The notes beneath the pieces were generated by a model that worked only from the letters and a program-made list of their open reading frames with translations, made no database searches and was not told where the DNA came from. Shown piece after piece: positions 5,527-34,966 of a stretch of 64,000 bases of DNA (positions are counted from its first letter, which is position 1; each line of letters begins with the position of its first letter). The translations under genes were made by a program, and so were the position numbers. The stretch comes from Candidatus Hydrogenedentota bacterium (GTDB lineage Bacteria > Hydrogenedentota > Hydrogenedentia > Hydrogenedentales > SLHB01): the NCBI GenBank assembly GCA_045863295.1, contig BTWA01000017.1, forward strand, positions 1-64,000. The letters run 5' to 3'.

Positions 5527-5808
5527 GTGGCGTTTCGTTTCGATGGGATCAAAGTATCATTCGTGCGCCATGACAGTTCTCCCAACCCTCGAAATCCGTT
5601 TGACCATTTGTCACCAGGAGAACGTGTCGCGCGGATACGACGCGTGCTGGCCCGTGTAGCATTGAGAAGAGTAGCCGACAATTCAATGCACGCTGCTGAC
5701 GAGTCTACCGCAGACCTCTCGGAAGGCGATGATGCCAAGACGCCATCAAGCGAACTCGTGGCGCCCACCGAATTGGCCGGTTGCGCACGCAAGGCTAGCG
5801 ACGTGTAG
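5527..5808 (+). CDS. Small hypothetical protein
   Basis: 93-aa ORF with a basic amphipathic helix (LSPGERVARIRRVLARVALRR), convergent with the HTH frame. Confidence 0.4.
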   Translation: MAFRFDGIKVSFVRHDSSPNPRNPFDHLSPGERVARIRRVLARVALRRVADNSMHAADESTADLSEGDDAKTPSSELVAPTELAGCARKASDV

Positions 5809-6211
5809 TTGCCGGTGCGATCTTTTTGAAAGCGGCAACTTGACGAGACTTTGGCGTGAGTCTCACCAAATTCCGCAGCTTCCGCTCGGAAATCTGAGCT
5901 ACTTGATCGGGAGATTGATCCAGGAGAGCCTGTTGTATCTCGGGAGCCAGTTTAAGCAGGTTGAGCAATTGAGTGACGCGCGCGCGCGATACTCCCATTT
6001 TGGACGCCAGGTGCGATTGATTCCTAACCTCTCCATTGTCAATCATTCTTTGAAACGACAGGGCAACGGACAGTGGGTTCTGTCGAGCGGGTTTCCTCGT
6101 TGTCTGATTCATTTCGCTCGTTGTGAAGAGTAGCTTTCCGTTCTGAAACTGCCTGAACACCGGCACGGGATGCCAGCCCTTAGCAAAAGTTCGCTGAGTT
6201 CGCGCTGCGCG
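5795..6211 (-). CDS. att-adjacent ParB/recombinase-C-terminal-like HTH frame, copy 1
   Basis: NQSHLASKMGVSRARVTQLLNLLKLAPEI; homologous to 23229.. and 34541..; conserved RTQRTFAxGWH begins at the att core. Confidence 0.7.
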   Translation of the reverse strand, partial: RAARTQRTFAKGWHPVPVFRQFQNGKLLFTTSEMNQTTRKPARQNPLSVALSFQRMIDNGEVRNQSHLASKMGVSRARVTQLLNLLKLAPEIQQALLDQSPDQVAQISERKLRNLVRLTPKSRQVAAFKKIAPATTRR

Positions 6212-6213
6212 GA
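6183..6213 (+). mobile_element. Element right end (attR-like) copy 1, core shortened to CGCGGA
   Basis: GCAAAAGTTCGCTGAGTTCGC-N4-CGCGGA; the 21-mer is identical at 23629 and 34932. Confidence 0.7.
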
Positions 6214-6608
6214 TCAAAATGACAAAACTGATTAAACGGCGATTGGTTAACATGATGTCAAAATCTCCCAGAAAGTTTGCCTGTTCTTGATTTGTTGCGC
6301 GCTGGGCAATTCTACCCAGGAAAAAGGCAAGAGCCGTCGTACGATCTACGCCATTCCTAACTAGGCAGTACGCAATCAGGTGATTCCTGGATCGCCTAAC
6401 GGCCATCGGGCACCGGCATCATCCACAGTGACAAGGAGTTAGGTGGGAACGATCTCACAGCCTAATCATGCAGAATAGTGAAAGTAGATTCATGGCATTG
6501 ATGTCGAGTTGAAATAGAATTGCGCTCTTACAACCGAAAATCTTGTTTTCATGTAAAATCCGTGGTCATATTGATTTACGCACATGTAATCTTTCGTGAA
6601 AAATCGAT

Positions 6609-6637
6609 TTGACAATCTGTTCATCGTGTGCTACAAT
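6609..6637 (+). promoter_or_regulatory. Sigma70-type promoter of the TetR operon
   Basis: TTGACA-N17-TACAAT, 30 bp upstream of ATG 6668. Confidence 0.8.
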
Positions 6638-6653
6638 GTGAATATACTTTCAC
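6638..6653. promoter_or_regulatory. Putative TetR operator 1
   Basis: GTGAA-N6-TTCAC palindrome over the expected transcription start; repeated at 8606-8623. Confidence 0.65.
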
Positions 6654-6667
6654 TACATGGAGTTGCC

Positions 6668-7318
6668 ATGGCTAAAGAAAAGCTAGATACCGAGGTTCGT
6701 CAGGAGCAGATCTTGGAGGCAGCGCTAGATGTGGTCTCCCGAAAGGGCATGAAAGGGCTCAATCTCGGGGCCGTGGCCAGACGCGTCGGCCTAGTTCCTT
6801 CCGCGATCTACCGCCACTTCGAGAACAAGGACGGACTCATTGATGCTCTGCTTGGGCTCATCGAGTCCCGACTGGTCGGCAATGTTGCCACAGTTAGACA
6901 GGAAACGAAGGACCCATTAAGGGCCCTCGAGTTGCTGCTCAAGCGGCACGTTCGCCTGATCCGTGAGAATGCGGGCATCCCCCGAATCGTATTCTCGGAA
7001 GAAGTCTACGGCGCGAACTCTCAGCGGAAATTCCGGGTACACGCACTTCTACAGAACTACCTGGGGCGGGTGGCGGAATTCTTTAGGGAGGCACAGCAGG
7101 CTGGCCTGGTCCGCACGGACTTGAGCGCGGATGAACTCTCCGTAATGTTCCTTGGACTAGTTCAGCCTGCGGCGATCCTATGGCACGTCAGCGATGGTGG
7201 ATTCGATGTGACCCGTCAGGCCGAAAAGGCCTGGGGGCTTTTCAGCGAAGCGATTGGAAAATGCAACGGAAAGGCGCCCGAGGCCGAAAAGCCGGCGCGC
7301 GCATCAAAGGAGAACTGA
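6668..7318 (+). CDS. TetR/AcrR family transcriptional regulator
   Basis: N-terminal HTH ILEAALDVV...GAVARRVGLVPSAIYRHF. Confidence 0.92.
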   Translation: MAKEKLDTEVRQEQILEAALDVVSRKGMKGLNLGAVARRVGLVPSAIYRHFENKDGLIDALLGLIESRLVGNVATVRQETKDPLRALELLLKRHVRLIRENAGIPRIVFSEEVYGANSQRKFRVHALLQNYLGRVAEFFREAQQAGLVRTDLSADELSVMFLGLVQPAAILWHVSDGGFDVTRQAEKAWGLFSEAIGKCNGKAPEAEKPARASKEN

Positions 7319-7319
7319 C

Positions 7320-7970
7320 ATGAACATGAAGAGTGGATTCACGATTGGCCTGATACTCGCAGGTCTGGAGATCGTTCTTCCGTCCGGGGCATGGGCGCAC
7401 TGTGACACACTGTCCGGCCCTGTAGTCACGGATGCCCAGAAGGCCATTGAAACCCGGGACCTGGACCCTGTCCTGAAATGGATCAGGCCTGACGACGAGG
7501 AAGAGATCCGCTCCCTCTTTGACAAGACTGTTCAAGTACGTCAGAAAGGCAAAGACGTGCAGGAGCTTGTGGACATGCACTTCTTCGAGACCCTTGTCCG
7601 GGTGCACCGTGCCGGCGAGGGCGCTCCGTACACGGGCCTGAAGCCTGCCGGCACGCCGGTTGAACCGGGAATTGAGGCCGCCGATAAAGCGCTCGAGTCC
7701 GAATCGAGTGGCGCCCTCGTTGAGGCTCTGGAAGCCAAACTTGAATCGAGTATTCACGAGCGTCTTGAACGCACAGTTGAGGCCAAGAAGCACAAAGATG
7801 AGAGCGTGGCCGCGGGCCGGAAATATGTCGAGGCTTACGTGGACTATATCCACTATGTTGAGCGCCTTCATGTGGTGATGTCCGGGACGTCGGCGCACGG
7901 GCATGAGGCTGAGGCAGACGAACACGTAAAGGCCGCAGCGACGGAGACCTCCAAAGCCCACGAGCATTAG
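7320..7970 (+). CDS. Exported His-rich protein, DUF6448-like
   Basis: Signal peptide ending AWA, then HCDTLSGPVV; FFETLVRVHRAGEGAPYTGLKPAG. Confidence 0.75.
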   Translation: MNMKSGFTIGLILAGLEIVLPSGAWAHCDTLSGPVVTDAQKAIETRDLDPVLKWIRPDDEEEIRSLFDKTVQVRQKGKDVQELVDMHFFETLVRVHRAGEGAPYTGLKPAGTPVEPGIEAADKALESESSGALVEALEAKLESSIHERLERTVEAKKHKDESVAAGRKYVEAYVDYIHYVERLHVVMSGTSAHGHEAEADEHVKAAATETSKAHEH

Positions 7971-8017
7971 ACAGAGACTTGGGGTTCACGAGACTCTGAC
8001 ATGAAGGAGACAACGTC

Positions 8018-8563
8018 ATGAGAGCAGCGGACATACTCGAACACGAGCACGAAGCCGTGCTGGCTGTGATCAAGGCGGCGAGAGGCGAAGCGGGGGCGAT
8101 CAAGGAAGCTGGTCAGGTGAACGCCCAACGAATCGGCGAATTCGCGGACTTCTTCCGGAACTTCGTTGATCGTTGCCATCACGGCAAGGAAGAGAAGCAC
8201 CTATTCCCCAAGCTTGAGGAACGCGGTGTGCCCCGAGAAGGCGGACCTATTGGCGTCATGCTCCAGGAGCATGAACTGGGCCGGGCCGAAGTTCGCGCGA
8301 TAGCCGAAGCGTTGACTCGGCTTGAGCAAGGAGACGGGGGTGCCGCGGCGGCCATCAAGGAGCATTTGCTGGCTTACGCGGACTTGCTCGAAGCCCACAT
8401 TCAAAAGGAGAACGGCATCCTGTTTCCCCTGGGCGACCGGGTCCTGACGCCGGACGACCAACAGTCACTGGTGGATGCCTTCGACGCCGTCGAGAGAGAA
8501 GAGATGGGAGAGGGCACGCACGAGCGCTACCATCAATGGATTCACGAGCTCGTTCAGGAGTAA
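8018..8563 (+). CDS. Hemerythrin (HHE cation-binding) domain protein
   Basis: EHEH, CHHGKEE, MLQEHE, HIQKEN motifs. Confidence 0.88.
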   Translation: MRAADILEHEHEAVLAVIKAARGEAGAIKEAGQVNAQRIGEFADFFRNFVDRCHHGKEEKHLFPKLEERGVPREGGPIGVMLQEHELGRAEVRAIAEALTRLEQGDGGAAAAIKEHLLAYADLLEAHIQKENGILFPLGDRVLTPDDQQSLVDAFDAVEREEMGEGTHERYHQWIHELVQE

Positions 8564-8605
8564 CGAAGCGGGGCGCCTTGTGCGCCCCGATTTCTTCGCA
8601 CTTCA

Positions 8606-8623
8606 TGTGAATGGACATTCACA
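8606..8623. promoter_or_regulatory. Putative TetR operator 2, internal to the operon
   Basis: Perfect palindrome TGTGAAT-GGAC-ATTCACA just upstream of the RBS for 8637. Confidence 0.65.
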
Positions 8624-8636
8624 AGAGGAAAGGCCA

Positions 8637-9800
8637 ATGAAGACTTTAAGAAAGAAAAGACTCCTCGTGATCCCGCTATTGGTGGCGGCTGTCGCGGGAG
8701 GGTATGCGTTCAGCCGAAATGGTTCGAGGAATGCCGGAGGCGCGGTCCACATATCTGGCAACATCGAGGTGACCGACGTCGAAGCCAGTTTCAAAGTGGC
8801 GGGTTGGGTGGAATCCCGTTTGGTTTCCGAAGGCGAGGTTGTCAGGGTGAACCAACCGATTGCGCGTCTGGACAGCGAGGACCTTGAGCAGGAGGTAGCC
8901 ATGCGGCGGGCAGAGGTAGCCGGTGCAGGCGCCAAGCTGGCCGAACTTGAAGCGGGTTCGCGGCCCGAGGAAATCGCTCGGGCCGAAGCTGCCGCGGCCC
9001 ATGCCCAGGCCCGGTTGGACGAGCTTCTGGCTGGTTCCCGTACTCAGGAAATCGAGGCTGCCCGCGCGTCCGTACAAAGGGCCGAGGCCGAGAATACTCG
9101 CGCTGATGTGGATTACGCACGCCAACGGCAACTCTACGAACAAGACGTCATATCCGCCCGGGAACGGGACAATGCCCTGGCTTCGTACGGGTCAACCAAA
9201 GCAATGCTGGCTGAAGCGCAGGAGCGTTTCCGGCTTGTGCAAGAAGGCCCCCGTCACGAACAAATTGCTCAGGCTCGGGCGGCATTGGGCGAGGCCCAGG
9301 CGTGGTACGAACAGGTAGTAGCCGGACCCCGTAAGGAAACCATCGAGCAGGCACGCGCGGAACGGATGCGCGCCGAGGAGGCCTTGCGACTGGCGGAAAC
9401 GAGATTGTCCTATGCCGCGATCGCCGCGCCACTCACCGGGATTGTTCTGTCGGACCATTTGGAACCAGGCGAGTATGTAACCCCCGGGGCCCCCATCGTC
9501 ACCATTGGCGACCTGGAAAACGTGTGGCTGCGCGGCTATATCGATGAAACCGACCTGGGACGTGTCAAACTGGGCCAGCCTGTCGCAGTGACGACGGACA
9601 CCTACCCTGACAAGACCTACGAGGGCGTACTGTCCTTCATCTCTTCCGAGGCGGAGTTCACGCCCAAGAACGTCCAGACAGACAAGGAGCGGGTCAAGCT
9701 CGTCTATCGAGTGAAGATAGACATTCCCAACCCCGACTTCGAACTCAAACCGGGTATGCCCGCGGACGCCAAGATACAGCTCACGCAAGGGGAAGGCTAA
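8637..9800 (+). CDS. HlyD-family membrane fusion protein (YbhG-like)
   Basis: N-terminal TM, long coiled hairpin, AEFTPKNVQT and LKPGMPADA motifs. Confidence 0.9.
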   Translation: MKTLRKKRLLVIPLLVAAVAGGYAFSRNGSRNAGGAVHISGNIEVTDVEASFKVAGWVESRLVSEGEVVRVNQPIARLDSEDLEQEVAMRRAEVAGAGAKLAELEAGSRPEEIARAEAAAAHAQARLDELLAGSRTQEIEAARASVQRAEAENTRADVDYARQRQLYEQDVISARERDNALASYGSTKAMLAEAQERFRLVQEGPRHEQIAQARAALGEAQAWYEQVVAGPRKETIEQARAERMRAEEALRLAETRLSYAAIAAPLTGIVLSDHLEPGEYVTPGAPIVTIGDLENVWLRGYIDETDLGRVKLGQPVAVTTDTYPDKTYEGVLSFISSEAEFTPKNVQTDKERVKLVYRVKIDIPNPDFELKPGMPADAKIQLTQGEG

Positions 9801-10750
9801 TGTCTGCGATTCACACTGAAAACCTCGTGCGCACCTTCGGGGAACTGAAAGCCGTGGATGCGCTGAACCTCGACGTGGGGGAAGGCGAGATCTTTGGCCT
9901 AGTGGGTCCGGATGGCGCCGGTAAAACCACGACGATGCGTCTGCTAACCGCCATCATGGAGCCGACGTCGGGAGAGGCCTGGGTGGCCGGTCATCACACG
10001 GTCCGCGAAGCCGAAGCCATCAAAGAGGATATTGGCTACATGAGCCAACGCTTCGGGCTTTACCCAGACTTGACCGTCCTTGAAAACATTCATTTCTATG
10101 CCGACATCTACAGCGTGCCGCGCCGCGGCCGAGAGGCCAAGATCGAGGAACTGTTGGGATTCAGCAACCTTACGCCTTTCAAAAAGCGCGAAGCCGGCAG
10201 GCTCTCCGGGGGCATGAAACAGAAACTCGGACTCGCCTGCGCCCTGATTCATACACCGAAGGTCCTGTTTCTCGACGAGCCCACGAATGGCGTCGATCCG
10301 GTCTCGCGCCGGGATTTTTGGCGCATTCTCTACAAACTGCTGCGTCAGAAGGTGACCATCTTTGTCTCCACGGCTTACTTGGACGAAGCGGAGCGCTGCA
10401 ACCGCATCGGACTGATCCACCAGGGCCGATTGTTGGCCGTTGGCACGCCAGACGAGGTAAAGCAGCTCATGCGCGGTTCGATTCTCGAAGTGCGGTGTGC
10501 GGAACCACGTAAGGCAGCCCGCTCGCTACAGGTCCATCTGCCATCCGGCAGCGTTGGCCTGTTCGGCGATCGGGTGCACGTGGTGACATCCACGCCGGAG
10601 AAGACGTCATCCGAACTGGAATCCATCCTTGCGCGGGACGACATTGCCGTGACGTCGGTGCGAACAATCGAGCCTAGCCTTGAGGATGTTTTCGTCTCGG
10701 TCCTGGGACGCTCAGAAGGAAAGGAGACCGTAGATGTCCGTGCAAACTGA
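9800..10750 (+). CDS. ABC-2 exporter ATP-binding subunit (YbhF N-half-like)
   Basis: GPDGAGKTT, LSGGMKQK, LDEPT. Confidence 0.92.
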   Translation: MSAIHTENLVRTFGELKAVDALNLDVGEGEIFGLVGPDGAGKTTTMRLLTAIMEPTSGEAWVAGHHTVREAEAIKEDIGYMSQRFGLYPDLTVLENIHFYADIYSVPRRGREAKIEELLGFSNLTPFKKREAGRLSGGMKQKLGLACALIHTPKVLFLDEPTNGVDPVSRRDFWRILYKLLRQKVTIFVSTAYLDEAERCNRIGLIHQGRLLAVGTPDEVKQLMRGSILEVRCAEPRKAARSLQVHLPSGSVGLFGDRVHVVTSTPEKTSSELESILARDDIAVTSVRTIEPSLEDVFVSVLGRSEGKETVDVRAN

Positions 10751-11705
10751 CAACGCCGTTGTTGTACGGGGCCTCGGGCGCAGATTCGGTGATTTCCGCG
10801 CGGTAAAGGACGTGACCTTCGAGGTCGCCAAAGGCGAGATCTTCGGTTTCTTGGGCCCGAACGGCGCAGGCAAATCCACCACGATCCGCATGCTCTGCGG
10901 AATTTTGGCCCCGACCGAGGGCGAAGGAACCGTAGCGGGCTTTGACGTTCGCACTCAGGCCGAACGTATCAAAGCCCACATCGGCTACATGAGCCAGAAA
11001 TTTTCCCTCTACGAGGACCTCACCGTTGAAGAGAATATTGATTTCTATAGCGGCATCTACCGGATACCCGCCGAGAGGAAACAAGAACGCAAGGAGTGGG
11101 CGCTCCAGATGGCCGGACTGGTAGAACACCGCCACATGCGGACGGGCCTTCTGTCGGGAGGTTGGAAGCAGCGCCTTTCCCTGGGCTGCGCCATCCTGCA
11201 CGAGCCTCCCGTGATCTTTCTCGATGAACCGACCTCGGGCGTTGACCCCATCAGCCGACGTCAGTTTTGGGATCTCATCTACGAACTCTCCGGAAAGGGA
11301 GTCACTGTCTTCGTAACGACCCACTACATGGATGAGGCCGAATACTGCGACCGAATCGCCTTGATCTACCGCGGAGAACTCATCGCCATGGGTACGCCCG
11401 AATCCCTGAAGCGGGAGACGATGCAGGAAGACGTACTTGAAATCCATTGTGATCGGCCAAGTGACGCCATGGAACTGATCGAGCGCCTCGACAGCGTCAA
11501 AGAGGCCGCGCTGTTCGGAAAAGGCCTACATGCCGTCGTGGCCGATGCCGACGAAGCTGGCCGGGAGATCCGCAAAACGCTCAGCGAGGCGGGTCTTAAA
11601 ATTGCGCGCATAGAAGCTATCACGCCCTCGATGGAGGACGTGTTTGTGTCGCTCATCGAGGCGCGGGACAAGCTCGAGGACGCGCAGAAAGAAGTGGCGG
11701 CATGA
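10734..11705 (+). CDS. ABC-2 exporter ATP-binding subunit (YbhF C-half-like)
   Basis: GPNGAGKST, LSGGWKQR, LDEPT, TTHYMDEAE. Confidence 0.92.
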   Translation: MSVQTDNAVVVRGLGRRFGDFRAVKDVTFEVAKGEIFGFLGPNGAGKSTTIRMLCGILAPTEGEGTVAGFDVRTQAERIKAHIGYMSQKFSLYEDLTVEENIDFYSGIYRIPAERKQERKEWALQMAGLVEHRHMRTGLLSGGWKQRLSLGCAILHEPPVIFLDEPTSGVDPISRRQFWDLIYELSGKGVTVFVTTHYMDEAEYCDRIALIYRGELIAMGTPESLKRETMQEDVLEIHCDRPSDAMELIERLDSVKEAALFGKGLHAVVADADEAGREIRKTLSEAGLKIARIEAITPSMEDVFVSLIEARDKLEDAQKEVAA

Positions 11706-12835
11706 AGCCCATGCGTGTGTGGGCGGTCGCTCGCAAAGAATTCATACATATTCTGCGCGACCTGCGAAGTTTGGGTATGGCCATCGCGATACCCATGTTG
11801 CTCCTCGTTTTGTTCGGGTACGCCCTCACGCTGGACGTGGACAACGTGCCGCTCATCGCCTGGGATCAAAGTCAGACACCCGCGAGCCGGGAGTTCCTGG
11901 CATACTTCACCGGGTCCCGGTACTTCGACTTGCGTCAGTTCGCATCCGGCTACGACGATATTGAGGACGCCATCGATACAGGCGACGCGCTCGTTGGTCT
12001 TGTCATCCCTCAGGACTTCGCGGAACGCGCCAAGTCTCTGAGTCCTGTGCGGGTGCAAGCTATCGTGGACGGCAGTGACTCGAACACCGCCACGATCGCC
12101 ATGGGCTATCTCGATGCGATTTCCATGGCCTACTCAAAAGATGTCCTGATTGAACAGACACGCCGCATTGTGGGCGAAGCTCCCGGGGACCCCATCGATT
12201 TCCGCCCGAGAGTCTGGTTCAACGCGGACCTCGAGTCCAAGAACTACATCATCCCGGGCCTTATTGCGGTCATCATGATGGTTATTGCCGCCCTTCTGAC
12301 CTCGCTAACGGTTTCCAAGGAGTGGGAACAGGGCACCATGGAGCAACTCATCTCTACGCCCGTCAAGGGACCTGAACTCATTCTGGGGAAGCTTCTGCCC
12401 TACTTCGCGGTAGGAATGTTAGACGTTCTCATGGCCGTGCTCATGGGCGAGTTTCTCTTCGATGTACCACTGCGCGGGAACGTGCTCCTGTTGTTCGGCG
12501 TTTCGGCCGCGTTCTTGGTTGGGGCGCTGGCGCTGGGCATGGTGATCAGTATCGTTGCCAAGAGCCAGTTGTTGGCCAGCCAACTCGCCATGATCCTGAC
12601 GTTTCTGCCCTCGTTTCTCCTATCCGGCTTTATGTACGACATTGGAAATATGCCGCGTCCGGTCCAGATCATTACGTATCTGATCCCGGCCCGATATTTT
12701 GTAGCGCTCCTAAAAGGAATTTACCTCAAGGGCGTGGGGCTGGAGGTGCTGGGAGTCGAGGCAGCGCTACTCGTGGTCTTCGGTGGGGCAATGGTTTTCT
12801 TGGCCAATGTGAAATTCAAGAAACGGCTTGAGTAG
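11702..12835 (+). CDS. ABC-2 permease (YbhS-like)
   Basis: ARKEFIHILRD, KEWEQGTMEQL, multiple TM segments. Confidence 0.9.
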   Translation: MKPMRVWAVARKEFIHILRDLRSLGMAIAIPMLLLVLFGYALTLDVDNVPLIAWDQSQTPASREFLAYFTGSRYFDLRQFASGYDDIEDAIDTGDALVGLVIPQDFAERAKSLSPVRVQAIVDGSDSNTATIAMGYLDAISMAYSKDVLIEQTRRIVGEAPGDPIDFRPRVWFNADLESKNYIIPGLIAVIMMVIAALLTSLTVSKEWEQGTMEQLISTPVKGPELILGKLLPYFAVGMLDVLMAVLMGEFLFDVPLRGNVLLLFGVSAAFLVGALALGMVISIVAKSQLLASQLAMILTFLPSFLLSGFMYDIGNMPRPVQIITYLIPARYFVALLKGIYLKGVGLEVLGVEAALLVVFGGAMVFLANVKFKKRLE

Positions 12836-12860
12836 CGCAAGTTTTTTGAAAGGTCATACG

Positions 12861-13991
12861 ATGTTCGAGCGAATTAAGTACATGTTAATCAAGGAGTTCA
12901 TCCAGGTATTTCGGGATCCGCGGATGAGGGCGGTCATCTTCGTGATGCCCATCGTTCAAGCGCTCGTGTTCGGGTATGCCGTTACCACAGACGTGAAGAA
13001 CGTCCCCATTGCCGTCTACGACTTGGACAACAGCATTGCCAGCCGAGAATTGACTGCACGGTTCACCGAGACCGAGTACTTCGACCTCGCTTGCCACGTG
13101 ACAAGTGATGCAGGGGCGCAGGGCCTTATTGACCGCGGCGAAGTGAAGGCTGTCCTCAGGTTTAACCATGGCTTTCAGGCCGATCTTCGCAGCGGGCGCA
13201 TGACGCCACTACAGCTTTTCGTGGACGGCACCGATTCCAATACAGCGGGAATCGTCCTCGACTACTCGGCAAAGATTGTCGGCCGCTACAGCGCCAACGT
13301 GCTCGTGACCCGCCTGAGCCATTTAGGGGGAGGCGCATCCATTGCAGAACCGCTTGCAGTTGAGACACGGGCCTGGTTCAACGAGAACCTCGAGAGCCGA
13401 AACTTCTACGTCCCCGGCGTCATCGCCATCCTCGTCATGCTTATCACGCTTATGCTGACGAGCATGGCCGTGGTCCGCGAAAAGGAAGTCGGGACTATGG
13501 AGCAAATCATGGTGACGCCGATCACGCCGGGGGAGTTCATACTTGGCAAGACGGTCCCCTTTGCCGTGATCGGCTTTGCCGATGTGTTGCTCATCACGAT
13601 TGTGGCCGTGTTCTGGTTCGAGATCCCGATACGCGGCAGTCTGCTTTTGTTGTTCATCGCGACCGGCCTCTACATCATGACCACGCTGGGTATCGGCCTA
13701 ATCATTTCAACGGTTAGTTCGACACAGCAGCAAGCCATGATGAGCACGTTCTTCTTCTACTTTCCCGCCGTTCTCCTGTCCGGGTTCATGTTCCCTATCG
13801 CCAATATGCCCGTGACGGTCCAGTGGCTAACGTATATCAATCCGCTTCGGTACTTCCTCGTCATCATTCGAGGAATCTTTCTAAAAGGAGTCGGGCCTTC
13901 CGTGCTATGGCCGCAGATGGCCGTGTTGCTCTGCATGGGTGTCGCCACGCTCTGGTTCGCCATGAGCCGCTTCAAGAAGACTTCGGCGTAG
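12861..13991 (+). CDS. ABC-2 permease (YbhR-like)
   Basis: IKEFIQVFRD, REKEVGTMEQI, multiple TM segments. Confidence 0.9.
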   Translation: MFERIKYMLIKEFIQVFRDPRMRAVIFVMPIVQALVFGYAVTTDVKNVPIAVYDLDNSIASRELTARFTETEYFDLACHVTSDAGAQGLIDRGEVKAVLRFNHGFQADLRSGRMTPLQLFVDGTDSNTAGIVLDYSAKIVGRYSANVLVTRLSHLGGGASIAEPLAVETRAWFNENLESRNFYVPGVIAILVMLITLMLTSMAVVREKEVGTMEQIMVTPITPGEFILGKTVPFAVIGFADVLLITIVAVFWFEIPIRGSLLLLFIATGLYIMTTLGIGLIISTVSSTQQQAMMSTFFFYFPAVLLSGFMFPIANMPVTVQWLTYINPLRYFLVIIRGIFLKGVGPSVLWPQMAVLLCMGVATLWFAMSRFKKTSA

Positions 13992-14007
13992 CTTTAAGGA
14001 GACAAAC

Positions 14008-15471
14008 ATGTTTCGTGAACACACTAAATCACACGTCCCGTCGTTGCCGGTACTGCTCACCTTGATAACCTCCATGACAGGGTGTGCGACATTGAGTCCG
14101 AACACGCCACCAAGCGTTGGGGACTACATTCCCAAGATGGTGGGGCAGCAGGCCCCTGCAAACCAGGCTCCAATGGCTGGCGCCTCTAGCCTAAATCTGG
14201 CTTCTCCAGCAACGGGATTATCGAAAGATGTGCTGTCATTGGCTGAGTGTGTACAAATTGCCTTGAACCAGAATCCGGCGCAACTCGCAGCTCGCCACGG
14301 CATAACGGTCGCTACCGAAACCGTTGGTATCGCTAAAGCGCCTTATTATCCCGAGGTCAATTTCATATCAAGCTGGAGCCGGTCCCAGCGCAGTTCGACT
14401 CTACCCGGCGGCGTTACCCAACTACTTACACCAGATTCCAATGGCCCTACTAACGATTGGCTTGCGGGCTTTGCCGCACGCTATACGATTGCAGATGGAG
14501 GCCGCAGGGCCGCCGAACTCAGGCGAACGCTTGCGTTAAAAGGGGCCACGGAAGAAGACGCCAAACGCGTACGGCAAGATATTGTCTTCGAAGTTCAGAG
14601 CAGCTTCTACCGCCAGGCCGCAGCAACGCAGGTACACAGCGTCGCAGAGGAGAACCTCTCAAGGGCAAAGGCTCATCTCGATCTTGCGCAACGTCTCAAG
14701 GAAGCGGGAGCGGTTCCAAAGGCAGACGTACTGCGGGCCGATGTCGAGGTAGCCGAAGCGGAGCTTTCCCTTGCACGCGCAGCGGGTTTGACGCGCACAA
14801 CGCGCGGACAGCTAAGCATCGCTATGGGCCTTCCTGCCGCATCACGTTTCAAGATCGACGCAGAGGATCAGAAGCTTGCCTCTCCCGTATTGGCAGACCC
14901 CGAGATCATGATCGAAGAAGCTCTGTACGCTCGCCCAGAAATTAATGCCGGCTTGCAGTACGTTTCCGCGGACCAAGCAGGAGTTGCCGCTGCCAAAAGC
15001 GCCTACCGCCCACGACTGTATGCAGATGCGGGCTACGACTACCATAGCGATAGCTTCCCGCCGAAGGGCGAGGAGTGGTCCGTTGCGTTGAACTTAAGTT
15101 GGACGATCTTTTCTGGCTTCTCGCGAAAGCACGAAGTGAACCGGGCCAGGGCTGAGCTATCGCGCCAGGAGGCCGAGGTTCAGCAACTGATCCTCCAAGT
15201 CCAGCAGGAAGTATGGGCGGCCTACTCGACAGTCCTTGAAACATGGGAGTCCGTCGAAACCACGGAATCGCAGGTGGCGAGCGCGTTGGATAGCATGCGC
15301 GCGGCAAGCACACGCTATGAGGTCGGCGCAGCGACGATCAACGATTTGCTTGACGCACAGACGGCCCTTGCACGTGCCGAGACCAATCGCGCGGAGACAG
15401 TGTGGAACTACTTAATCGCAGACGCTTGGCTTGACCGTGTCCGTGGGAAAAATTCCGCCGCTTATTCCTGA
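14008..15471 (+). CDS. TolC-family outer membrane efflux lipoprotein
   Basis: Lipobox-like MTGC; two OEP repeats (ALNQNP, RPEI, RYEVGAATINDLLDAQ). Confidence 0.85.
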   Translation: MFREHTKSHVPSLPVLLTLITSMTGCATLSPNTPPSVGDYIPKMVGQQAPANQAPMAGASSLNLASPATGLSKDVLSLAECVQIALNQNPAQLAARHGITVATETVGIAKAPYYPEVNFISSWSRSQRSSTLPGGVTQLLTPDSNGPTNDWLAGFAARYTIADGGRRAAELRRTLALKGATEEDAKRVRQDIVFEVQSSFYRQAAATQVHSVAEENLSRAKAHLDLAQRLKEAGAVPKADVLRADVEVAEAELSLARAAGLTRTTRGQLSIAMGLPAASRFKIDAEDQKLASPVLADPEIMIEEALYARPEINAGLQYVSADQAGVAAAKSAYRPRLYADAGYDYHSDSFPPKGEEWSVALNLSWTIFSGFSRKHEVNRARAELSRQEAEVQQLILQVQQEVWAAYSTVLETWESVETTESQVASALDSMRAASTRYEVGAATINDLLDAQTALARAETNRAETVWNYLIADAWLDRVRGKNSAAYS

Positions 15472-15546
15472 AGCCGCAAACATGAATTCTTCACTGGACT
15501 TGTACAGCAAAGCGAGGACTTCCTGGTCAGTAAGAAGGAATCGCAA

Positions 15547-15834
15547 ATGGAGCAACTACCTTCTGAGGAAAATGTACGGCGATATGTTGTCGACTGCCTA
15601 TCGGTCACCTATGAAGCACATCGCTGGTCATCACGGGTCCATTCTGCCAGACGAGATCTCGCAAATTCTAAGCGACTGATCTTGGATAATCTGGATTTCA
15701 ATGCAGATGAATTCAGTCCGTGGCTCGCATGCAACGCGCCTTGGGGAACTTTGGAATGGGCCTATTGCAACCTGCTACGAATGGCCCGTCATGGTGTCAT
15801 GAAATCCCATTCGGGGAAGACAGCCAAATGTTGA
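15547..15834 (+). CDS. Hypothetical protein
   Basis: 95-aa ORF with an AAGGA RBS; overlaps the next start. Confidence 0.3.
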   Translation: MEQLPSEENVRRYVVDCLSVTYEAHRWSSRVHSARRDLANSKRLILDNLDFNADEFSPWLACNAPWGTLEWAYCNLLRMARHGVMKSHSGKTAKC

Positions 15835-17324: not shown

Positions 17325-17609
17325 ACCTTAAATGCTCGACACCTGCAAGCTGACCTGGGCCCGACCCTCAACAAGCAACTTTCCAGGTTCTATGGCAACC
17401 AGAACAACTGTGGACCCAGGCAATCTGGGACATTACCACGAATGCTTGCGCCGTTCGTACTCGCGCTTACGCGCATCGTGCCCTTGGGACGCACTTTGCA
17501 CCGTCGTTCTATTCGCAGCATTTTCCAAGACGGTCTACCGTCTTACGGACCTCGCTTGTCAATCCTGGCGAACTGCATGTCGATGGATCGAACAAAAGTC
17601 TCGGCTGCG

Positions 17610-18764: not shown

Positions 18765-18774
18765 GATATTCCGG

Positions 18775-22315: not shown

Positions 22316-22347
22316 CGGGACTCTCCTTATTTCAGCTGGCGTTGCAG

Positions 22348-22770
22348 CTACGTCACCTCGCACAACGGAACGATTGGGCTTGCCGAACGGAGCAGTTTCG
22401 CGATCGTCACGCGCCCCAGTGCACGTTCTGCCGCGGCGTAGACCTGGTCCAATTCGCTGTGGAGAGGGCAGAGCTTCGTGTGCGATGGCAGCCCAAGCGG
22501 GCAACTGCGGATACGCTCCAGCGGCGCCACGGAACTGACCACGTCGAGGATCGTGATATCCTCAGGCCGTTGCGCCAACGCGTAGCCGCCGCCGGGACCG
22601 GGCTGCGATCGCACGAGCCCGCCACCCACCAAGTCTTGCAAAACCTTGTGCAAATAGCGGCGTGGTACCTTCGTGCGCTCGGCCAGGAGGTCGGCCGAAG
22701 CCGTTCGCCCTGGTTCGCGGGCCAGCCACACCACGGCCCGTAAGGCATACTCTGAAGACTTGGGCAACAT
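22348..22770 (-). CDS. Rrf2 family transcriptional regulator
   Basis: [28 protein letters not shown]...CPLH. Confidence 0.92.
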
Positions 22771-23228: not shown

Positions 23229-23663
23229 CTACTGAGAATCGGAGAGAGCCACGAATTGCTTTCTCATGGTTTGGAAAGCCTCAAGCTGCTCTTGTGCAGA
23301 GGCAAGCTTGGTCATGGAACGCAGACGCCTCTCGGTAAAGAAGGCAATCGCGGCAGAGTCCTTTACGGCACTCAGTTCGGTGATGACTGCTGGTGGGAGT
23401 TTGAGGAGGTTCAGGAGTTGGGTGACGCGAGCCCGAGTCAGACCCAATTGTTGCGCAAGCCGGGCCCGGTCGCGGATCGTGCCCTGGTCCAGCATCTTTC
23501 GAAAGAACAATGCGAGCGCTACTGGATTGATCGGTTCGGTCTCTTCCGGTTCCCCGGCTGGGGTCACCGCGTATATCACATTGCGAACTAATGAGTTGCG
23601 ATATACCGGTGAGACGTGCCATCCGAAGGCAAAAGTTCGCTGAGTTCGCACTACGCGGAGCCA
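23229..23663 (-). CDS. att-adjacent HTH frame, copy 2 (frame continues to GTG 23714)
   Basis: WLRVVRTQRTFAFGWH...LAQQLGLTRARVTQLLNLLKLPP...FFTERRLR. Confidence 0.72.
   Translation of the reverse strand, partial: WLRVVRTQRTFAFGWHVSPVYRNSLVRNVIYAVTPAGEPEETEPINPVALALFFRKMLDQGTIRDRARLAQQLGLTRARVTQLLNLLKLPPAVITELSAVKDSAAIAFFTERRLRSMTKLASAQEQLEAFQTMRKQFVALSDSQ
23629..23663 (+). mobile_element. Element right end / att junction with tRNA-Asn 3' fragment CGCGGAGCCA
   Basis: 21-mer + N4 + CGCGGAGCCA, identical to the 3' end of the tRNA-like sequence at 35328-35337. Confidence 0.8.
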
Positions 23664-23673
23664 TGATATCCAG

Positions 23674-23703
23674 AGGGGTTGCGCTTCGTGCGTAACCCCT
23701 TTT
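23674..23703 (+). terminator. Terminator hairpin after the att core
   Basis: AGGGGTTGCGC-ttcgt-GCGTAACCCCT-TTT; near copy at 35346-35380. Confidence 0.7.
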
Positions 23704-26107: not shown

Positions 26108-26192
26108 ATTTCTCCTAACGTGTTTTGCTCAGCTCCTGGGCGCGACAAGTACACGAGGGATAGTACATAGACCTTGGAACTCACGTTTGCGT

Positions 26193-29676
<3,484 letters not shown>

Positions 29677-29702
29677 TCAGTTGTTGCCGCGTTTATGTGG
29701 GC

Positions 29703-30050
29703 TTATACCGCGTCGATTTGTTCCTCACCGGACCGAATCCTGACAATACGCTCGGCGTCGGTTACGACTATCAGGCCGTCCGCGGCATTGCCGGTATGGG
29801 CCGCTTTCTGGATGACTGCGACGATTTGGTCGCAAGTGCTGTCCGCACAAAAGACCATCAAGAGGCGCATGGCGCGGAAATCGAGGCTGTCTTCGGTCGC
29901 AACATATTTTCCGCCCGGTCCGCGACCGCGGCTCTGTCCTTCACACGGAGAGAGAGTGACGCCGGGAAAATGCTCACAATCGTGCAATGCGCTCAAGATG
30001 CGGTGTACCGCGTCGGTGCGGACTATGGCTCGAATTTCTTTCATGGACAT
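29703..30050 (-). CDS. P-II-like protein
   Basis: MKEIRAIVR...AHTGNAADGLIVV...RIRSGE. Confidence 0.85.
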   Translation of the reverse strand: MSMKEIRAIVRTDAVHRILSALHDCEHFPGVTLSPCEGQSRGRGPGGKYVATEDSLDFRAMRLLMVFCADSTCDQIVAVIQKAAHTGNAADGLIVVTDAERIVRIRSGEEQIDAV

Positions 30051-30055
30051 TCTCC

Positions 30056-31615
30056 TCAGTGGTCGTGCGCGGCGCCGGCTTTTTCGATGTCTGCCTTGAT
30101 CAGATAGCTGTTCTTGCTGACAAATAGCTCGCCAGGACTTAACCCGCTTACAATCTCGACGAGTGATCCGTCGCTACGGCCCTGCTCGACAGGACGCGCT
30201 TCGTAGGTATTGCCTACTGAGACGAACGCGACTGACCAGTCGCGAAATGTTTGAATCGCGTCCACCGGCACGGCAACCGGCACAGACGACTCTTCACCTG
30301 CAACGGTGACTGTCACAAAGAGCCCTGGGCGCCACAGTCCTTCCGGATTTGGTAAGTCAACTATCGCCTTGGCGGTGCGCGTTTGTTCGCCGACCAACGC
30401 ACCTACGAAGGCAATCACGCCTTGTGCTTCGATTCCCAAGTCTTGAGAATGTACGGTAACGGGCTGGTTCTCTCGGATGCGCTTGAGGTCGGCGGCATAC
30501 ACCACGACTTCGGCCCAGAGACTGCTTAGATCGGCAATGACAAACGCGTCCGCGTTATCGGCCACGGCTTCGCCAATGCTCATGTGCTTTTCGATGATGG
30601 TGCCATCGATTGAAGAATGAATCGGATAGTCCGTCAGCGTCTTGTCTTTACCACCGCGGATGTCTGCAACCTGTTCCGGCGATAGTCCAAGAGAGCGTAG
30701 TTTCTGTTCCGCCGATCGCACGCTTACGTCCAACTCGGCGAGTGCCTGTCTGGCAGTCAGGAATTCCTCTTCCGAAGAAATCTTCTTGTCGAAGAGGTCC
30801 TTCTCTCGACTAGAGCGAACACGAGCGAGTTCTCGCCGCTCCAGGTCCGCGAGGAATGCACTCTTGGCATCGGCCAGTTCACGGCTGTCTATAACGGCCA
30901 GAAGGTCTCCCTTTTTCACAGTGTCGCCGAGGTTCTTGTGGACTTCGCGCACTAAGCCGGGGAGGCGCGGTACGACGTGTACAATTCGATTGGGATTGAG
31001 TTGGATTTCACCCGGTAATGCCACAACGTCGCGAATGGTGCCCGGCCCGGCTGGTTGGGTCTCGATTCCACCCTCCCTAGCCGCTTCTTCGCTTATCTCA
31101 ACACGGCCTTCATAGCTCTCATAACTCCACGTAAACGGCTTTCCTGCGTGCTCCGCATTGACCTCAACGTCGAATGAATGCGGTTCCTCGACTTCCTGAT
31201 TGCTCTTGAGGAAATCGTCCTCGGGAGAAAAGGTGATGCTATCGGTACGTCCGCCAAGGCGGTGAAGAAGAATCGTGAGTTGTACCTCATCCGGTGGCAG
31301 GGGATTTTCGTCGGCATAGGGATAGACCCGGAACTCAGGCGGCACGCCCGTCTCGAATATCGTGATTTCAAGTTCGAGTCCTTCGCCGTGCAACATACGC
31401 CCGCCGTGTGGGCCTCGCTCACCCTCTTCGTCATGGCCGCCCTCCTCCGCGTGGCCGTGAACGTCGGCTTCCTGAGCTTGCTCTTCATGACCACCGGCGT
31501 GACCGTGTTCGTCTTCGCCAACTGGTTCCGCGCGGTTGGCAGTGACGAAATAGTAGGCCCCACCGAGTCCGGCGATGGCGATCGCGATTACGACAATTGC
31601 ATTGAACACTTTCAT
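30056..31615 (-). CDS. czcB: CzcB-type RND membrane fusion protein with His-rich N-terminal domain
   Basis: EHGHAGGHEE, GPHGGR, WRPGLFV, C-terminal AAHDH. Confidence 0.9.
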   Translation of the reverse strand: MKVFNAIVVIAIAIAGLGGAYYFVTANRAEPVGEDEHGHAGGHEEQAQEADVHGHAEEGGHDEEGERGPHGGRMLHGEGLELEITIFETGVPPEFRVYPYADENPLPPDEVQLTILLHRLGGRTDSITFSPEDDFLKSNQEVEEPHSFDVEVNAEHAGKPFTWSYESYEGRVEISEEAAREGGIETQPAGPGTIRDVVALPGEIQLNPNRIVHVVPRLPGLVREVHKNLGDTVKKGDLLAVIDSRELADAKSAFLADLERRELARVRSSREKDLFDKKISSEEEFLTARQALAELDVSVRSAEQKLRSLGLSPEQVADIRGGKDKTLTDYPIHSSIDGTIIEKHMSIGEAVADNADAFVIADLSSLWAEVVVYAADLKRIRENQPVTVHSQDLGIEAQGVIAFVGALVGEQTRTAKAIVDLPNPEGLWRPGLFVTVTVAGEESSVPVAVPVDAIQTFRDWSVAFVSVGNTYEARPVEQGRSDGSLVEIVSGLSPGELFVSKNSYLIKADIEKAGAAHDH

Positions 31616-33168
31616 GGTTGTTCCTCGTGCGATTCGTTCGTTTCGGGTATGGCAAACAGCGCCTGACCGGTGAGACGTTCCACATCCGCAAGGTATTGGT
31701 AGTACCTAGACTGCGCGTCTAGTAGCTGACTTCGCGCGTCGAACAGGCTGCGTTGCGCGAAAAGCACGTCCAGCAACCCGAACTTGCCCTGAAGATAGCC
31801 TTCGTTGGTGGCCTCGAATGCCTCTTGCGCTTTCGGCAAGACATCCGATCTCAGGGTGCTTGCTTCTATATGGGCAGCCTCGAGCACACTGTACCGCGCG
31901 GCTAGCGTTGCGCCGACCTGCACCTGCGTAGCACGCCGCTGGGCGGACGCTTTGAGCGCCATGTACTCGGCCTCACGAATTCGCCCTTGGTTGCGATGGA
32001 ATAGCGGTAACGGAATCGAAGCGCCAAGCACCAGCGACTGCTCCCGCGAATCGTGCGGCCGTACAGTTGATTGCGAGTATCCAAAGTTGCCCTCGCCCGT
32101 GAGTCCGTACGCCTGCTGGTCACGTGCGCCAAGCCCCGTGCTTCGAAAACCCAGCGTCACCGTCACATCCGGTTTGGCATTGGCTCGTTCGAGTTCTATC
32201 GCAGCTTCTCGAAGGTCAACTTCGGCCATCCAACGCGACAAATCGGGAACTGTTTCCAACTGTTGCCCAAGTTCGTCCAGCGGGGGTATGGCTTGTGTCT
32301 CGTCAAACTGGCCGATGGCGTTCGTGAACGTTGCGGATGTCGCACCCCAGTAAGACACCAGAGATATTCTTGCAGCATCCAGTTCGCGTCTCGTACGCTC
32401 GACTCCGATCCGCACCACACCGGCTTCGACTTCCACTTTGGAGAGTTCAATGGGAGACACTTTGCCCGCATCAACCCGCGCACGCACGGTATCCTGGACC
32501 TGTTGCGCTAAGTCGGCCAAGGCGGTCGCCAGCCGTAGACGTTCTTGGGTGGCTACGACTTCGTAGAATGCCTTTGCCGCGTTCGCAAGAACATCGGCTC
32601 GTGCAACCTCGTAGTCCCATGCGGCGACTGCCTGTTCGCGTTTTGCCACGTTAATTCGCTTCCCGCGTTTTCCGCCCAGTTCGATGAGCTGCGAAAGGCT
32701 TAGTGTAATCTCCGCTTCGCGCAACCCGGATTCGGATCCGGTTTCTCTGGTCCGTTCATATTCGGGCACGAAACCACGCCGGAAGATAGGAACCGCTATG
32801 TCTCCACTGGGGGTTGTTATGGTCTGGGTTTCGCTGGTAAGTGGACTGGAAAGTCCGAAACGCTTGGATGTCACACCCGGCCCGGATTGAAGCCGTAAAT
32901 CCTCGACCTGAATGGAAAGCTCGGGATTCGGTCTGAGGCGCGCCTGTATTTCACGCGCCTCTGCAGCGCGAATGTCCCACGAGTATGCCGCCAAAGACGG
33001 ATTCTGTCTTAAGGTTAACGCGAGTGCCTGTCCAAGCGTCAATTCCCCTATAGGATTCTCAATTGCCGCAGACTCTGGCTCCTGACTGGAGTCTGCGCTG
33101 TTGGCGTGCGAAACTGAGCAAATAAGCCATGTCGCGAATAACATGACGGCTATTCGAAAAGCCCACAT
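31612..33168 (-). CDS. czcC: CzcC/TolC-family outer membrane factor
   Basis: QARLRPNPEL, IELGGKR, GYLQGKFGLLDVL. Confidence 0.88.
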   Translation of the reverse strand: MWAFRIAVMLFATWLICSVSHANSADSSQEPESAAIENPIGELTLGQALALTLRQNPSLAAYSWDIRAAEAREIQARLRPNPELSIQVEDLRLQSGPGVTSKRFGLSSPLTSETQTITTPSGDIAVPIFRRGFVPEYERTRETGSESGLREAEITLSLSQLIELGGKRGKRINVAKREQAVAAWDYEVARADVLANAAKAFYEVVATQERLRLATALADLAQQVQDTVRARVDAGKVSPIELSKVEVEAGVVRIGVERTRRELDAARISLVSYWGATSATFTNAIGQFDETQAIPPLDELGQQLETVPDLSRWMAEVDLREAAIELERANAKPDVTVTLGFRSTGLGARDQQAYGLTGEGNFGYSQSTVRPHDSREQSLVLGASIPLPLFHRNQGRIREAEYMALKASAQRRATQVQVGATLAARYSVLEAAHIEASTLRSDVLPKAQEAFEATNEGYLQGKFGLLDVLFAQRSLFDARSQLLDAQSRYYQYLADVERLTGQALFAIPETNESHEEQP

Positions 33169-33169
33169 A

Positions 33170-33403
33170 TTACTTAGTCTCCTTTGTCGTCGGGGCTGAG
33201 CGTTCGAAGTGGGTATGACCCAAGTGCCGCGTTTTCTTGAACGGCTGGCCGGATGTTTTGGGACGTGGAGACGTTTCCCCTTGGGGGTCTGATGTCAAGT
33301 CCTTCGTGTGGTTGGCTCCATATGTTTTGCATCCGGAAAGAGCGAATGTTGTACATACCAAGATGGCTGTGAATAGTAGCTGTTGGATTACTCGGTTTTT
33401 CAC
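33170..33403 (-). CDS. Small putative lipoprotein
   Basis: GTG start after AAAGGA; lipobox LSGC; HLGHTH. Confidence 0.45.
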   Translation of the reverse strand: MKNRVIQQLLFTAILVCTTFALSGCKTYGANHTKDLTSDPQGETSPRPKTSGQPFKKTRHLGHTHFERSAPTTKETK

Positions 33404-33683
33404 GGCTGGGTGACCCTTTCCTTTCTCAGTGAACTCCACACGAATGGCAAAAAGCATTCGAGTTGTTGCGGTACTTTCACGAGGGCGTACGGTTAGCGTG
33501 GCGCTGGTTGAGGGGTTACGGGACCATCTTGTCGATGCTGTGCTCGACTGAATCCCGGTCACTGCACGCCCGTGCAGTCAGAGGATAGAGCGTGGAAGTG
33601 GGCCTACCCAACAATTGATGAGAAGACCAACTACCAAGTAGCCGAGAAGCGATGATCCGAACCGAACACAGAAGGTAGGCGGA

Positions 33684-34124
33684 TCAAATGAGTAGTACGA
33701 CCGTACGAAGAGGAGTGGGTGACAAATGGGTGGGATTATTGCGGTTAAAAGGTTGGCGAGTACAAAGCACGGCCGCCAGACTCGTCAATGATAACTCCGT
33801 ACAGTAGGACTTCTGGACTGGATTCGGCGCAAAAAGCCGTGAAGAAAGTGCAAGATTATTCGCATGTGTAGATATGAGCGGCATATCTGTGCAAGGGCCA
33901 CAGTGCGAATTGTCCTGCGTCACATTCGTTTGATGGTCTGGCTCTGTACGCGACGCTGACTGTGCGAGATTGTCGAAACAACGGCCTCGCTGAGCGGCTT
34001 CTATTTCCCTGTGGCCATCCTGCCCTACACACAAAACACGGAGATCGTGGCCGGGCACACCTGCCACGAGTTGTAGGACAAAAATCGTTCCAACAAGGGA
34101 AACAAACAATCTCTTTGCGATCAT
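33684..34124 (-). CDS. Exported Cys/His-rich protein upstream of czc
   Basis: Signal/TM, LCVGQDGH, HCGPCTD, C-terminal LRTVVLLI. Confidence 0.55.
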   Translation of the reverse strand: MIAKRLFVSLVGTIFVLQLVAGVPGHDLRVLCVGQDGHREIEAAQRGRCFDNLAQSASRTEPDHQTNVTQDNSHCGPCTDMPLISTHANNLALSSRLFAPNPVQKSYCTELSLTSLAAVLCTRQPFNRNNPTHLSPTPLRTVVLLI

Positions 34125-34540
34125 GTGGACAGCCTCATCCGGCAGAAGGGTATCAATCGAAATCCCAAATGTCAATAAACACGCTCGGTATATCCGGGGG
34201 CGTAAAAGCCCTCTGTGCGTTCAAATTATCGAATGACGCGGCTATTGATCGCCTACCAGCAGGCGTCCAATCAGGGCTACGGAGTGTTCGGCCACCATTC
34301 ATTAGGAGGCTTCTTAAGTTCCGAAAGCAGACAATCTCTCCGCCTGATCACACAATAGCTAACAGTCCAACCAGCAAACAGAACAATTCAACACTTGTCG
34401 CATATTCCATCATTGGATTGAATATTCGACTCACTTTTCGAACCTGCTGCTACTTGACCTATTAGCCTGACTCATACGAAGGAATACGCTCCATTCTCCA
34501 ACTCCCATTCTCTGTTTTATTCAAGCGATCGGGCACGCTG

Positions 34541-34966
34541 CTATTGAAGTGCTTTCAGTTCCTTCTTCAACTCCTGAAACATTCTGCCCTGTGCCCTTGG
34601 AGAGGAGAGTCTGGTGAGACGTCGAAGGCGCCTCTCAGTGAAGAAAGTGACCTCAACATGCTCCCGGGCGGAACCCAGTTCTTGGACAATATCAGGCGGA
34701 AGCTTGAGCAGATTCAGCAATTGAGTGACTCGAGACGGCGTCAAACCTACTTGCTTCGCAAGCTGCGACTGATTGTCGACCACTCCTTGGTCGAGCATAC
34801 TTCGAAAGGACAAGGCGAGCGCTATTGGATTAATCGGTTCGGCCTTACCCGGCTCATCCCGTTGGATCGTCGTGTATATAGCATTGCGATCTAATGAGTT
34901 GCGATAAACCGGGGACACATGCCATCCGTGAGCAAAAGTTCGCTGAGTTCGCACCGCGCGGAGCCA
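34541..34966 (-). CDS. att-adjacent HTH frame, copy 3
   Basis: WLRAVRTQRTFAHGWH...NQSQLAKQVGLTPSRVTQLLNLLKLPP...FFTERRLR. Confidence 0.72.
   Translation of the reverse strand, partial: WLRAVRTQRTFAHGWHVSPVYRNSLDRNAIYTTIQRDEPGKAEPINPIALALSFRSMLDQGVVDNQSQLAKQVGLTPSRVTQLLNLLKLPPDIVQELGSAREHVEVTFFTERRLRRLTRLSSPRAQGRMFQELKKELKALQ
34932..34966 (+). mobile_element. Element right end (attR) with tRNA-Asn 3' fragment
   Basis: 21-mer + N4 + CGCGGAGCCA. Confidence 0.8.

Follow-up and report, generated by a model that had tools for sequence, protein, structure and literature searches.

Why should three reading frames for the same kind of DNA-binding domain each begin at a fragment of one tRNA gene, in a single register and with no start codon common to all three? 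The question is raised by the 64,000-nucleotide stretch that opens contig BTWA01000017.1 (C17) of a Candidatus Hydrogenedentota genome, from an uncultured sludge bacterium, and that is called the window throughout. An initial annotation of this stretch had described three minus-strand frames with a helix-turn-helix (HTH) domain, whose conserved sequence starts at a short attachment-site (att) core, the CGC of CGCGGA being read as arginine; the sequence and matches of all three frames to the ParB-type HTH domain PF17762 bear this description out, and copies 2 and 3 read W-L-R at the core as it had said. It had further proposed that a gene, probably that of the recombinase, approaching from the other end of the element is cut at the core by integration and gains the HTH in the excised circle. 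The comparisons presented here support the first part of that proposal, a recombinase frame cut at the core by integration; from the sequences we infer that a long protein may be made in this organism, that a circle may form, and that directionality or partitioning may come under control.

The reading that we favour, and hold to be probable, is that the gene of a large serine recombinase (LSR) spans its own attP, so that integration cuts an LSR–HTH frame at the core and strands the HTH, and that the free form would encode LSR and HTH together. Because no stop codon of the LSR gene itself precedes the crossover site, the unintegrated frame continues into a ParB/Noc-type HTH, and the attP arrangement would specify one protein of ~670 residues. 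Integration would leave the LSR at attL, on a second contig (C16), with 532 residues, the last of which would be supplied together with the stop by the antisense strand of the tRNA gene, and would strand the HTH half at attR, the three frames of the window being such stranded halves. Only copy 1, the left-most, would belong to an element that still carries the LSR (element 1); copies 2 and 3 would close recombinase-less modules (modules 2 and 3), which may remain from earlier insertions or may be passengers served in trans by the LSR.

The recombinase lies on C16 beside the sole tRNA-Asn gene of the genome (C16 c[37339–37414]; 43 tRNA genes were found in 88 contigs). Its domains, PF00239 (E = 6.9e-38), PF07508 (2.8e-18) and PF13408 (2e-15), occur in the order that identifies an LSR; its N-terminus reads ...YVRVSTDMQ, a motif that we take to hold the catalytic serine, and its frame crosses the core to end in ...ANWLRG*, with the TAG stop inside the antisense tRNA-Asn, as had been anticipated for a recombinase gene at the left end of the element. 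In all four intact close relatives (G000, G109, G094 and G009; 63–93% identical) the LSR stops inside tRNA-Asn, three times at the T-arm TAG and once at the anticodon-loop TAA, and among 27 LSR loci of the phylum (a table that leaves out a frameshifted copy in G114, a decayed copy in G110 and a fragment in G001) 4 stop inside the tRNA and 23 have their own stop. The short LSR forms end WLRG*, WLRE*, WLREQDSNLRPSG* or WLLR* inside tRNA-Asn, so that integration changes the C-terminus.

The shared att sequence is short, at 6–10 nt (CGCGGA up to CGCGGAGCCA) and with no long block of identity, which fits a serine integrase. The crossover has to fall within CGCGGA, since in copy 1 that is where identity to the tRNA stops; in the outer junction of the relative G094 it stops one base later. 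The 10-mer taken alone, with one mismatch allowed, has 12 matches against 9.5 expected and is thus not above chance, whereas the pattern of a 21-nt P-arm stretch that is identical in the three copies, presumed from sequence to be a recombinase-binding arm, gives 3 matches against 0 in 100 shuffles. This identity stands within frames whose proteins are only 36–59% identical to one another. An ungapped mirror test for inverted-repeat half-sites around the core found 12–13 of 26 positions matching, which does not exceed the level of shuffles (mean 12.7, maximum 16–17), and a gapped half-site resemblance is seen by eye only.

The window opens at base 1 of C17 and therefore has no sequence to its left on that contig; a 55-mer ties the start of C17 to contig C55, which is also tied to C23, and a direct link between C16 and C17 was looked for in the assembly and not found. 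In the relative G094, HTH junctions, LSR and tRNA-Asn all lie on a single contig (C20) that is syntenic with C17 plus C16: it holds homologues of copies 3 and 2 and of the copy-1 region, with the LSR and tRNA-Asn ~157 kb further on, in the expected order and orientation. Because G094 has both ends on one contig, the window is read as showing where a single large composite island finishes on its right; it would contain the right-hand 35 kb of the island, the whole having been inserted by the LSR into the 3′ end of tRNA-Asn. The arrangement carries the Islander signature: the tRNA gene, tRNA-Asn, is intact at one end (C16), displaced 3′ fragments in direct orientation mark the other (C17), and in G094 both such ends share a contig. 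Copy 1 closes the part of the island that holds an AEP primase and a TrwB-like open reading frame (ORF), and the C16 side of that part consists of the LSR and defence genes. An array of three complete tandem elements was set aside as too simple a description, since a Pfam scan of 47 window ORFs found no recombinase in modules 2 and 3.

When the two island ends are joined in silico at the core, the LSR of C16 runs without a stop into copies 1, 2 and 3 (668, 672 and 669 codons), so that the attL–attR fusion foreseen by the initial annotation is in frame with every HTH frame of the window. Natural joints of LSR tail, core and HTH within the window's own lineage (lineage A: G110, G089, P0151, P0152 and P0065) are likewise all in frame.

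Complete fusions are found in a second lineage (lineage B), whose LSR is only 26% identical to that of the window. A search for longer relatives of P0151 returned P0153, whose 90% cluster includes P0155 and P0154. P0155, known from its protein sequence alone, is a complete protein of 683 residues in which Resolvase, Recombinase and zinc-ribbon domains are followed by ...NKIWLP and a ParB HTH (21.1 bits, slightly below the Pfam cut-off of 22.6), and P0154 (488 aa) has the same LSR with a different short end after WLP. The integrated counterpart is represented by L153, a metagenome contig whose 63% identical lineage-B LSR ends ...NKNWLLR* with its TAG inside the antisense tRNA-Asn. A further search gave 12 fused proteins, two more of them complete (P0158, 740 aa; P0162, 678 aa). 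An in-frame ORF thus reaches the core, and homologues are both att-linked and fused to serine recombinases, partially in P0151 and P0152 and completely in P0155, P0158 and P0162. Because the searches could return in-frame proteins only, the count of fused proteins says nothing on how often the frames agree. A metagenome scan for the contigs of P0153, P0155, P0158 and P0162 produced the relative L153 only, and a viral scan with P0153 found nothing.

The LSR parts of P0155, P0158 and P0162 are 17–31% identical to one another and their HTH modules 57–61%, a disparity that fits an exchange of halves at the core. LSRs with as little as 17–34% identity share the core frame W-L-P/R, which is antisense to the CCA end of the tRNA; on the more speculative reading given below, it might thus be possible to combine any LSR half with any HTH half. 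P0168 carries the N-terminus of an AEP-TOTE primase fused to a lineage-B HTH module at the same junction motif, so that partners other than an LSR can be joined to the module; element 1 of the window also carries an AEP-TOTE primase (3873–4910).

Substitutions were compared on the two sides of the core. Between G000 and G009, residues 501–520 of the LSR tail, which lie outside the arm, show 6 synonymous changes over 15.3 sites and 2 non-synonymous changes over 44.7 sites; in HTH residues 13–35, pN/pS (the ratio of non-synonymous to synonymous change per site) is 0.20–0.85 and does not exceed 0.55 in 44 of 55 pairs. It follows that the sequence on either side of the core is read as protein as far as the arms. 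In the 11 codons that lead up to the core and in codons 1–12 of the HTH frame, changes of either type are few, a scarcity that points to constraint at the DNA level, as for a DNA site.

Other observations weigh against the favoured reading, and they are best considered together with its strongest rival, in which the HTH frame encodes an ordinary small ParB-like regulator translated from a start codon directly inside the P arm, each stranded frame is a gene in full, and read-through in the free form is accidental and without a role. Every natural lineage-A joint listed above has an LSR part that is decayed or N-terminally truncated, a full-length fusion was not found in the window's own lineage, and the search for longer proteins there gave only two fusions, the partial P0151 and P0152, both N-truncated; the best 150 of 1586 phmmer matches to the HTH are all small, at 62–364 aa, as a regulator gene would predict. 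The HTH frame is also intact where no intact LSR was found beside it: next to the decayed LSR of G110 (6 stops), in the recombinase-less modules, and in G103 and G105, where the LSR query found none. The only contig whose readable DNA shows a complete LSR next to the HTH, the phage-like IMG/VR contig L156, which carries genes for Mom, holin and lysozyme, has its two frames displaced from register by a single base (the spacing is 41 nt, compared with 39 and 42 nt in relatives), and its LSR stops 10 codons past the core. Moreover, AlphaFold2 predicts no fold spanning the joint in the one natural junction ORF modelled.

The HTH may be a gene of its own because 14 of 15 lineage-A junctions (G085, with an unrecognisable motif, and a truncated copy on contig C39 being left out of the count) have a start-type codon just before CGA-ACT-CAG, namely ATG in 4, GTG in 5 and TTG in 5, and one gene call, P0001, begins there (MRTQRTF). 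The fifteenth junction is that of copy 1 in the window, which has GCG at this codon and so speaks against the small-regulator gene; the earlier statement that the three frames share no start codon is on this account literally correct, but copies 2 and 3 carry an in-frame GTG two codons after the core, which is a possible start. Against an independent gene there is also no Shine–Dalgarno-like motif, judged by eye, within 10 nt upstream of the NTG in the junction sequences, and the NTG may be fixed for another reason, because its TG belongs to TGCGA(A/T)C, which is conserved at the DNA level. The lineage-B fusions have no start codon after WLP, because the residue there is K or G, and no Met occurs between core and HTH. 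Finally, constraint at the protein level extends along the LSR tail as far as the core, and complete fusions exist with three LSRs as divergent as 17–31% identity. On these grounds we regard the small-regulator explanation as rather unlikely; the LSR gene that spans its own attP is in any case compatible with an HTH that may, in addition, be produced separately by starting at the ATG, GTG or TTG beside the core.

Much less probable is the view that the three frames are dead relics of old insertions and that their in-frame relation is an inherited one-in-three coincidence. Modules 2 and 3 do lack a recombinase, the copy on C39 is decayed, and the lineage-A junctions are all homologous, so that their shared frame counts as one event; purifying selection on residues 13–35 and on the HTH domain, across copies 36–62% identical, is nevertheless not what dead sequence would show, and the long and short forms both recur in the lineage whose LSR is only 26% identical. 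That the junctions were made by another enzyme, such as a tRNA-targeting tyrosine integrase, with the LSR as a bystander, is hardly credible: a passage of the 2014 Islander paper (PMC4383910) does treat tyrosine integrases as the only ones then known to target tRNA genes, but none was found among the 47 window and 23 C16 ORFs scanned, in L153 and in each of the 4 intact close relatives the LSR lies directly against tRNA-Asn, and the natural joints place the LSR tail directly against the HTH arm.

An LSR gene that spans its own attP would belong to a known kind, that of integrase genes cut by their own reaction, with the differences that the enzyme is of the serine type and the part lost is a ParB-type HTH. 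The genes of SSV-type integrases, tyrosine recombinases of archaeal viruses, extend across attP and are partitioned by integration into a tRNA gene; they share this split with the C16 gene and differ from it in recombinase type and in that the split inactivates the gene rather than removing an accessory domain. Mycobacteriophages BPs and Brujita, whose immunity is integration-dependent, have attP inside a gene whose product is shortened by integration and changed in behaviour, the gene cut there being the repressor and the integrase a tyrosine recombinase. In Tn916-type elements circularisation joins the ends and places genes at one end under signals of the other; that coupling is transcriptional, whereas the coupling in the island would be translational, within one reading frame.

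The closest precedent, as far as it is set out in the sources cited, is IntP/IntX of phage Mx8 (Tojo et al. 1996; Magrini et al. 1999), in which attP lies inside the integrase coding sequence and integration at a tRNA locus gives the gene a new 3′ end (passages in PMC6070905 and PMC4383910), the prophage enzyme being altered but still active. Here too the integrase frame contains the crossover site, as the LSR frame crosses the core, the joins are open and P0155, P0158 and P0162 are complete fusions; unlike Mx8 Int, a tyrosine recombinase, the C16 enzyme is an LSR. What is lost is, in addition, a whole and separately folding ParB-type module, which remains as an open frame at the far end of the island, where it may be expressed by itself. 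PMC4383910 names the SSV-type integrases of Sulfolobus viruses and also states that serine integrases were not known to target tRNA genes; if the favoured reading is right, the island would provide such a case. A literature search of partial coverage returned no serine recombinase that targets tRNA-Asn or is fused to a ParB HTH.

With chromosomal ParB/Spo0J and Noc the module shares the HTH domain (PF17762) and its fold: a model of the lineage-B HTH module superimposes on Noc and Spo0J over 88–89 residues at ~2.1 Å (Foldseek probability 1.00, E 0.009–0.02). It differs from them in that neither the three frames nor the junction ORFs match the N-terminal, CTP-binding domain (GxxRxxA; PF02195) at E values up to 5, and no adjacent parS-like repeat was found; nor did the regions downstream of the three frames yield common repeats that might be binding sites of the HTH. 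The idea that the LSR tail and the N-terminal motif of the HTH together form a ParB N-domain spanning the core was dropped, given the lack of a Pfam match at E up to 5 and low AlphaFold2 confidence: in a natural junction ORF the HTH domain is predicted with high confidence, and the predicted local distance difference test score (pLDDT) is below 50 over tail, core and N-motif (residues 172–248). A complex prediction for the free HTH with the C-terminal half of the LSR scored 0.02. Distant HTH relatives in Fermentibacteria and Aegiribacteria metagenome-assembled genomes (loci L080–L123) are ordinary proteins of 358–400 aa that are not att-linked and consist of an N-terminal extension, the ParB HTH and C-terminal TPR repeats.

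Should a free form exist in this organism and be the source of the long protein, the added DNA-binding domain could change how the enzyme acts. By analogy with IntP/IntX of Mx8, one guess assigns integration, or the anchoring of the free element, to the long form and regards the short form as the resident enzyme with altered activity. Tentatively, the arrangement may amount to a self-editing integrase, LSR joined to a ParB/Noc HTH in the free element and short LSR plus free HTH in the integrated one, the switch setting direction or maintenance of the free form without a classical directionality factor and the three HTH ends acting as alternative C-termini; we put this forward as a possibility short of even odds. 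For the insertion of large DNA into genomes the main tools are serine integrases, and so far only separate directionality factors have been invoked to explain how they choose direction; control built into the integrase itself, through a domain make-up that switches with the reaction it catalyses, would be of a different kind. For annotation, start-less frames at island ends and integrases that end inside a tRNA gene would be interpreted as the two parts of a single gene, not as errors.

Features of the island in the window and, in the last row, on contig C16
Feature	Position	Strand	Evidence
ParB-HTH frame, copy 1, right end of element 1	5795..6211	-	PF17762 E = 1e-11; codon after core is GCG, no start
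ParB-HTH frame, copy 2, right end of module 2	23229..23663	-	PF17762 E = 9.5e-6; GTG at 23651-23649
ParB-HTH frame, copy 3, right end of module 3	34541..34966	-	PF17762 E = 1e-6; GTG at 34954-34952
Junction 1, core remnant CGCGGA, where identity to the tRNA-Asn 3′ end stops	6208..6213	+	Comparison with C16 tRNA
Junction 2, core equal to the tRNA-Asn 3′ end, CGCGGAGCCA	23654..23663	+	Match to C16 tRNA
Junction 3, core CGCGGAGCCA, outermost junction of the array	34957..34966	+	Match to C16 tRNA
21-nt P-arm stretch, identical in three copies, encoding R-T-Q-R-T-F-A	6183..6203, 23629-23649, 34932-34952	-	Pattern search
G+C hairpin then T run just after junction 2, terminator-like in the tRNA sense	23675..23699	+	Homologous to hairpin at 35350-35374, which follows the tRNA-like sequence
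Hairpin then T run in the flank of junction 3	34980-35000		Sequence of the flank
GIY-YIG nuclease ORF between junction 3 and the tRNA-like sequence, stop codon in the tRNA-like 5′ end	35008..35259	+	PF01541 E = 1.5e-17
Degenerate tRNA-Asn-like sequence; 5′ end, middle and 3′ end match the real tRNA-Asn	35252..35337	+	By-eye comparison with C16 tRNA
Element 1 right-hand genes: 820-aa ORF with weak TrwB-like coupling-protein match, and AEP primase	383..4910	+	PF10412 E = 1.6e-4; PF22548 E = 2.2e-31
Module 2 cargo: TetR, ABC-2 efflux with HlyD and OEP, SpoIIE phosphatase, P450, hemerythrins, ScdA/RIC, Rrf2	6596..22770	.	Pfam scan
Module 3 cargo: P-type ATPase and RND efflux set (AcrB-type pump, HlyD, OEP)	23888..33562	-	Pfam scan
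LSR, 532 aa, abutting and reading towards tRNA-Asn	C16 35755-37353		Resolvase, Recombinase, Zn_ribbon_recom domains

The array form of junction 1 is spanned by a contig from another study (X4, covering 5412–6275), and the junction is conserved in the relative encoding P0005. Four sets of assembled contigs were compared with the window for joints and transcripts; they contained no RNA contig over copy 1 and no informative loose contig ends at the cores. A fourth HTH copy, on contig C39 (29768–30166; L026), is 77% identical to copy 2 and decayed, being interrupted by a single TAA stop and missing both the core and codons 1–8.

Beyond junction 3, a third CGCGGAGCCA site (the 10-nt tRNA end on the plus strand) lies at 35328–35337. 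The initial annotation had taken the sequence that it terminates for tRNA-Asn itself; its 3′ part is indeed identical to that of the C16 gene, but the sequence is degenerate, and ARAGORN and Rfam find no tRNA gene there or elsewhere in the window, the real gene being the one on C16. By eye, parts of the anticodon arm and T arm are replaced by two G+C hairpins with 3-nt loops, and the predicted fold is stable (−44 kcal/mol, z = −3.7) and not a cloverleaf. With 2 copies in the genome, the hairpin is not a repeated element; the same kind of hairpin stands beside a tRNA-Asn-like fragment in the flanks of relatives (L067 and L070). The adjoining GIY-YIG nuclease ORF is a single copy in the genome.

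Module 2 ends (17610–22770) in a cluster of hemerythrin-domain genes with ScdA/RIC and the Rrf2 regulator, all in the same direction as HTH copy 2, a composition that suggests a response to nitrosative or iron stress; an RNA-library contig from another study covers 19621–22662. The LSR end of the island, G000 contig C16 1–37353 (loci L001–L003), is a defence island that encodes SIR2 with a Piwi-domain protein, SMODS and SAVED with a ThiF-like protein, a DUF1156 methyltransferase, two SNF2-type helicases and a 2556-aa ORF. Immediately before the LSR (C16 34919–35758; L001:4920–5759) lies the gene of a 279-aa protein with HTH_17 and Recombinase domains and without a catalytic resolvase domain; its stop overlaps the LSR start codon, and the protein may be an accessory subunit of the LSR.

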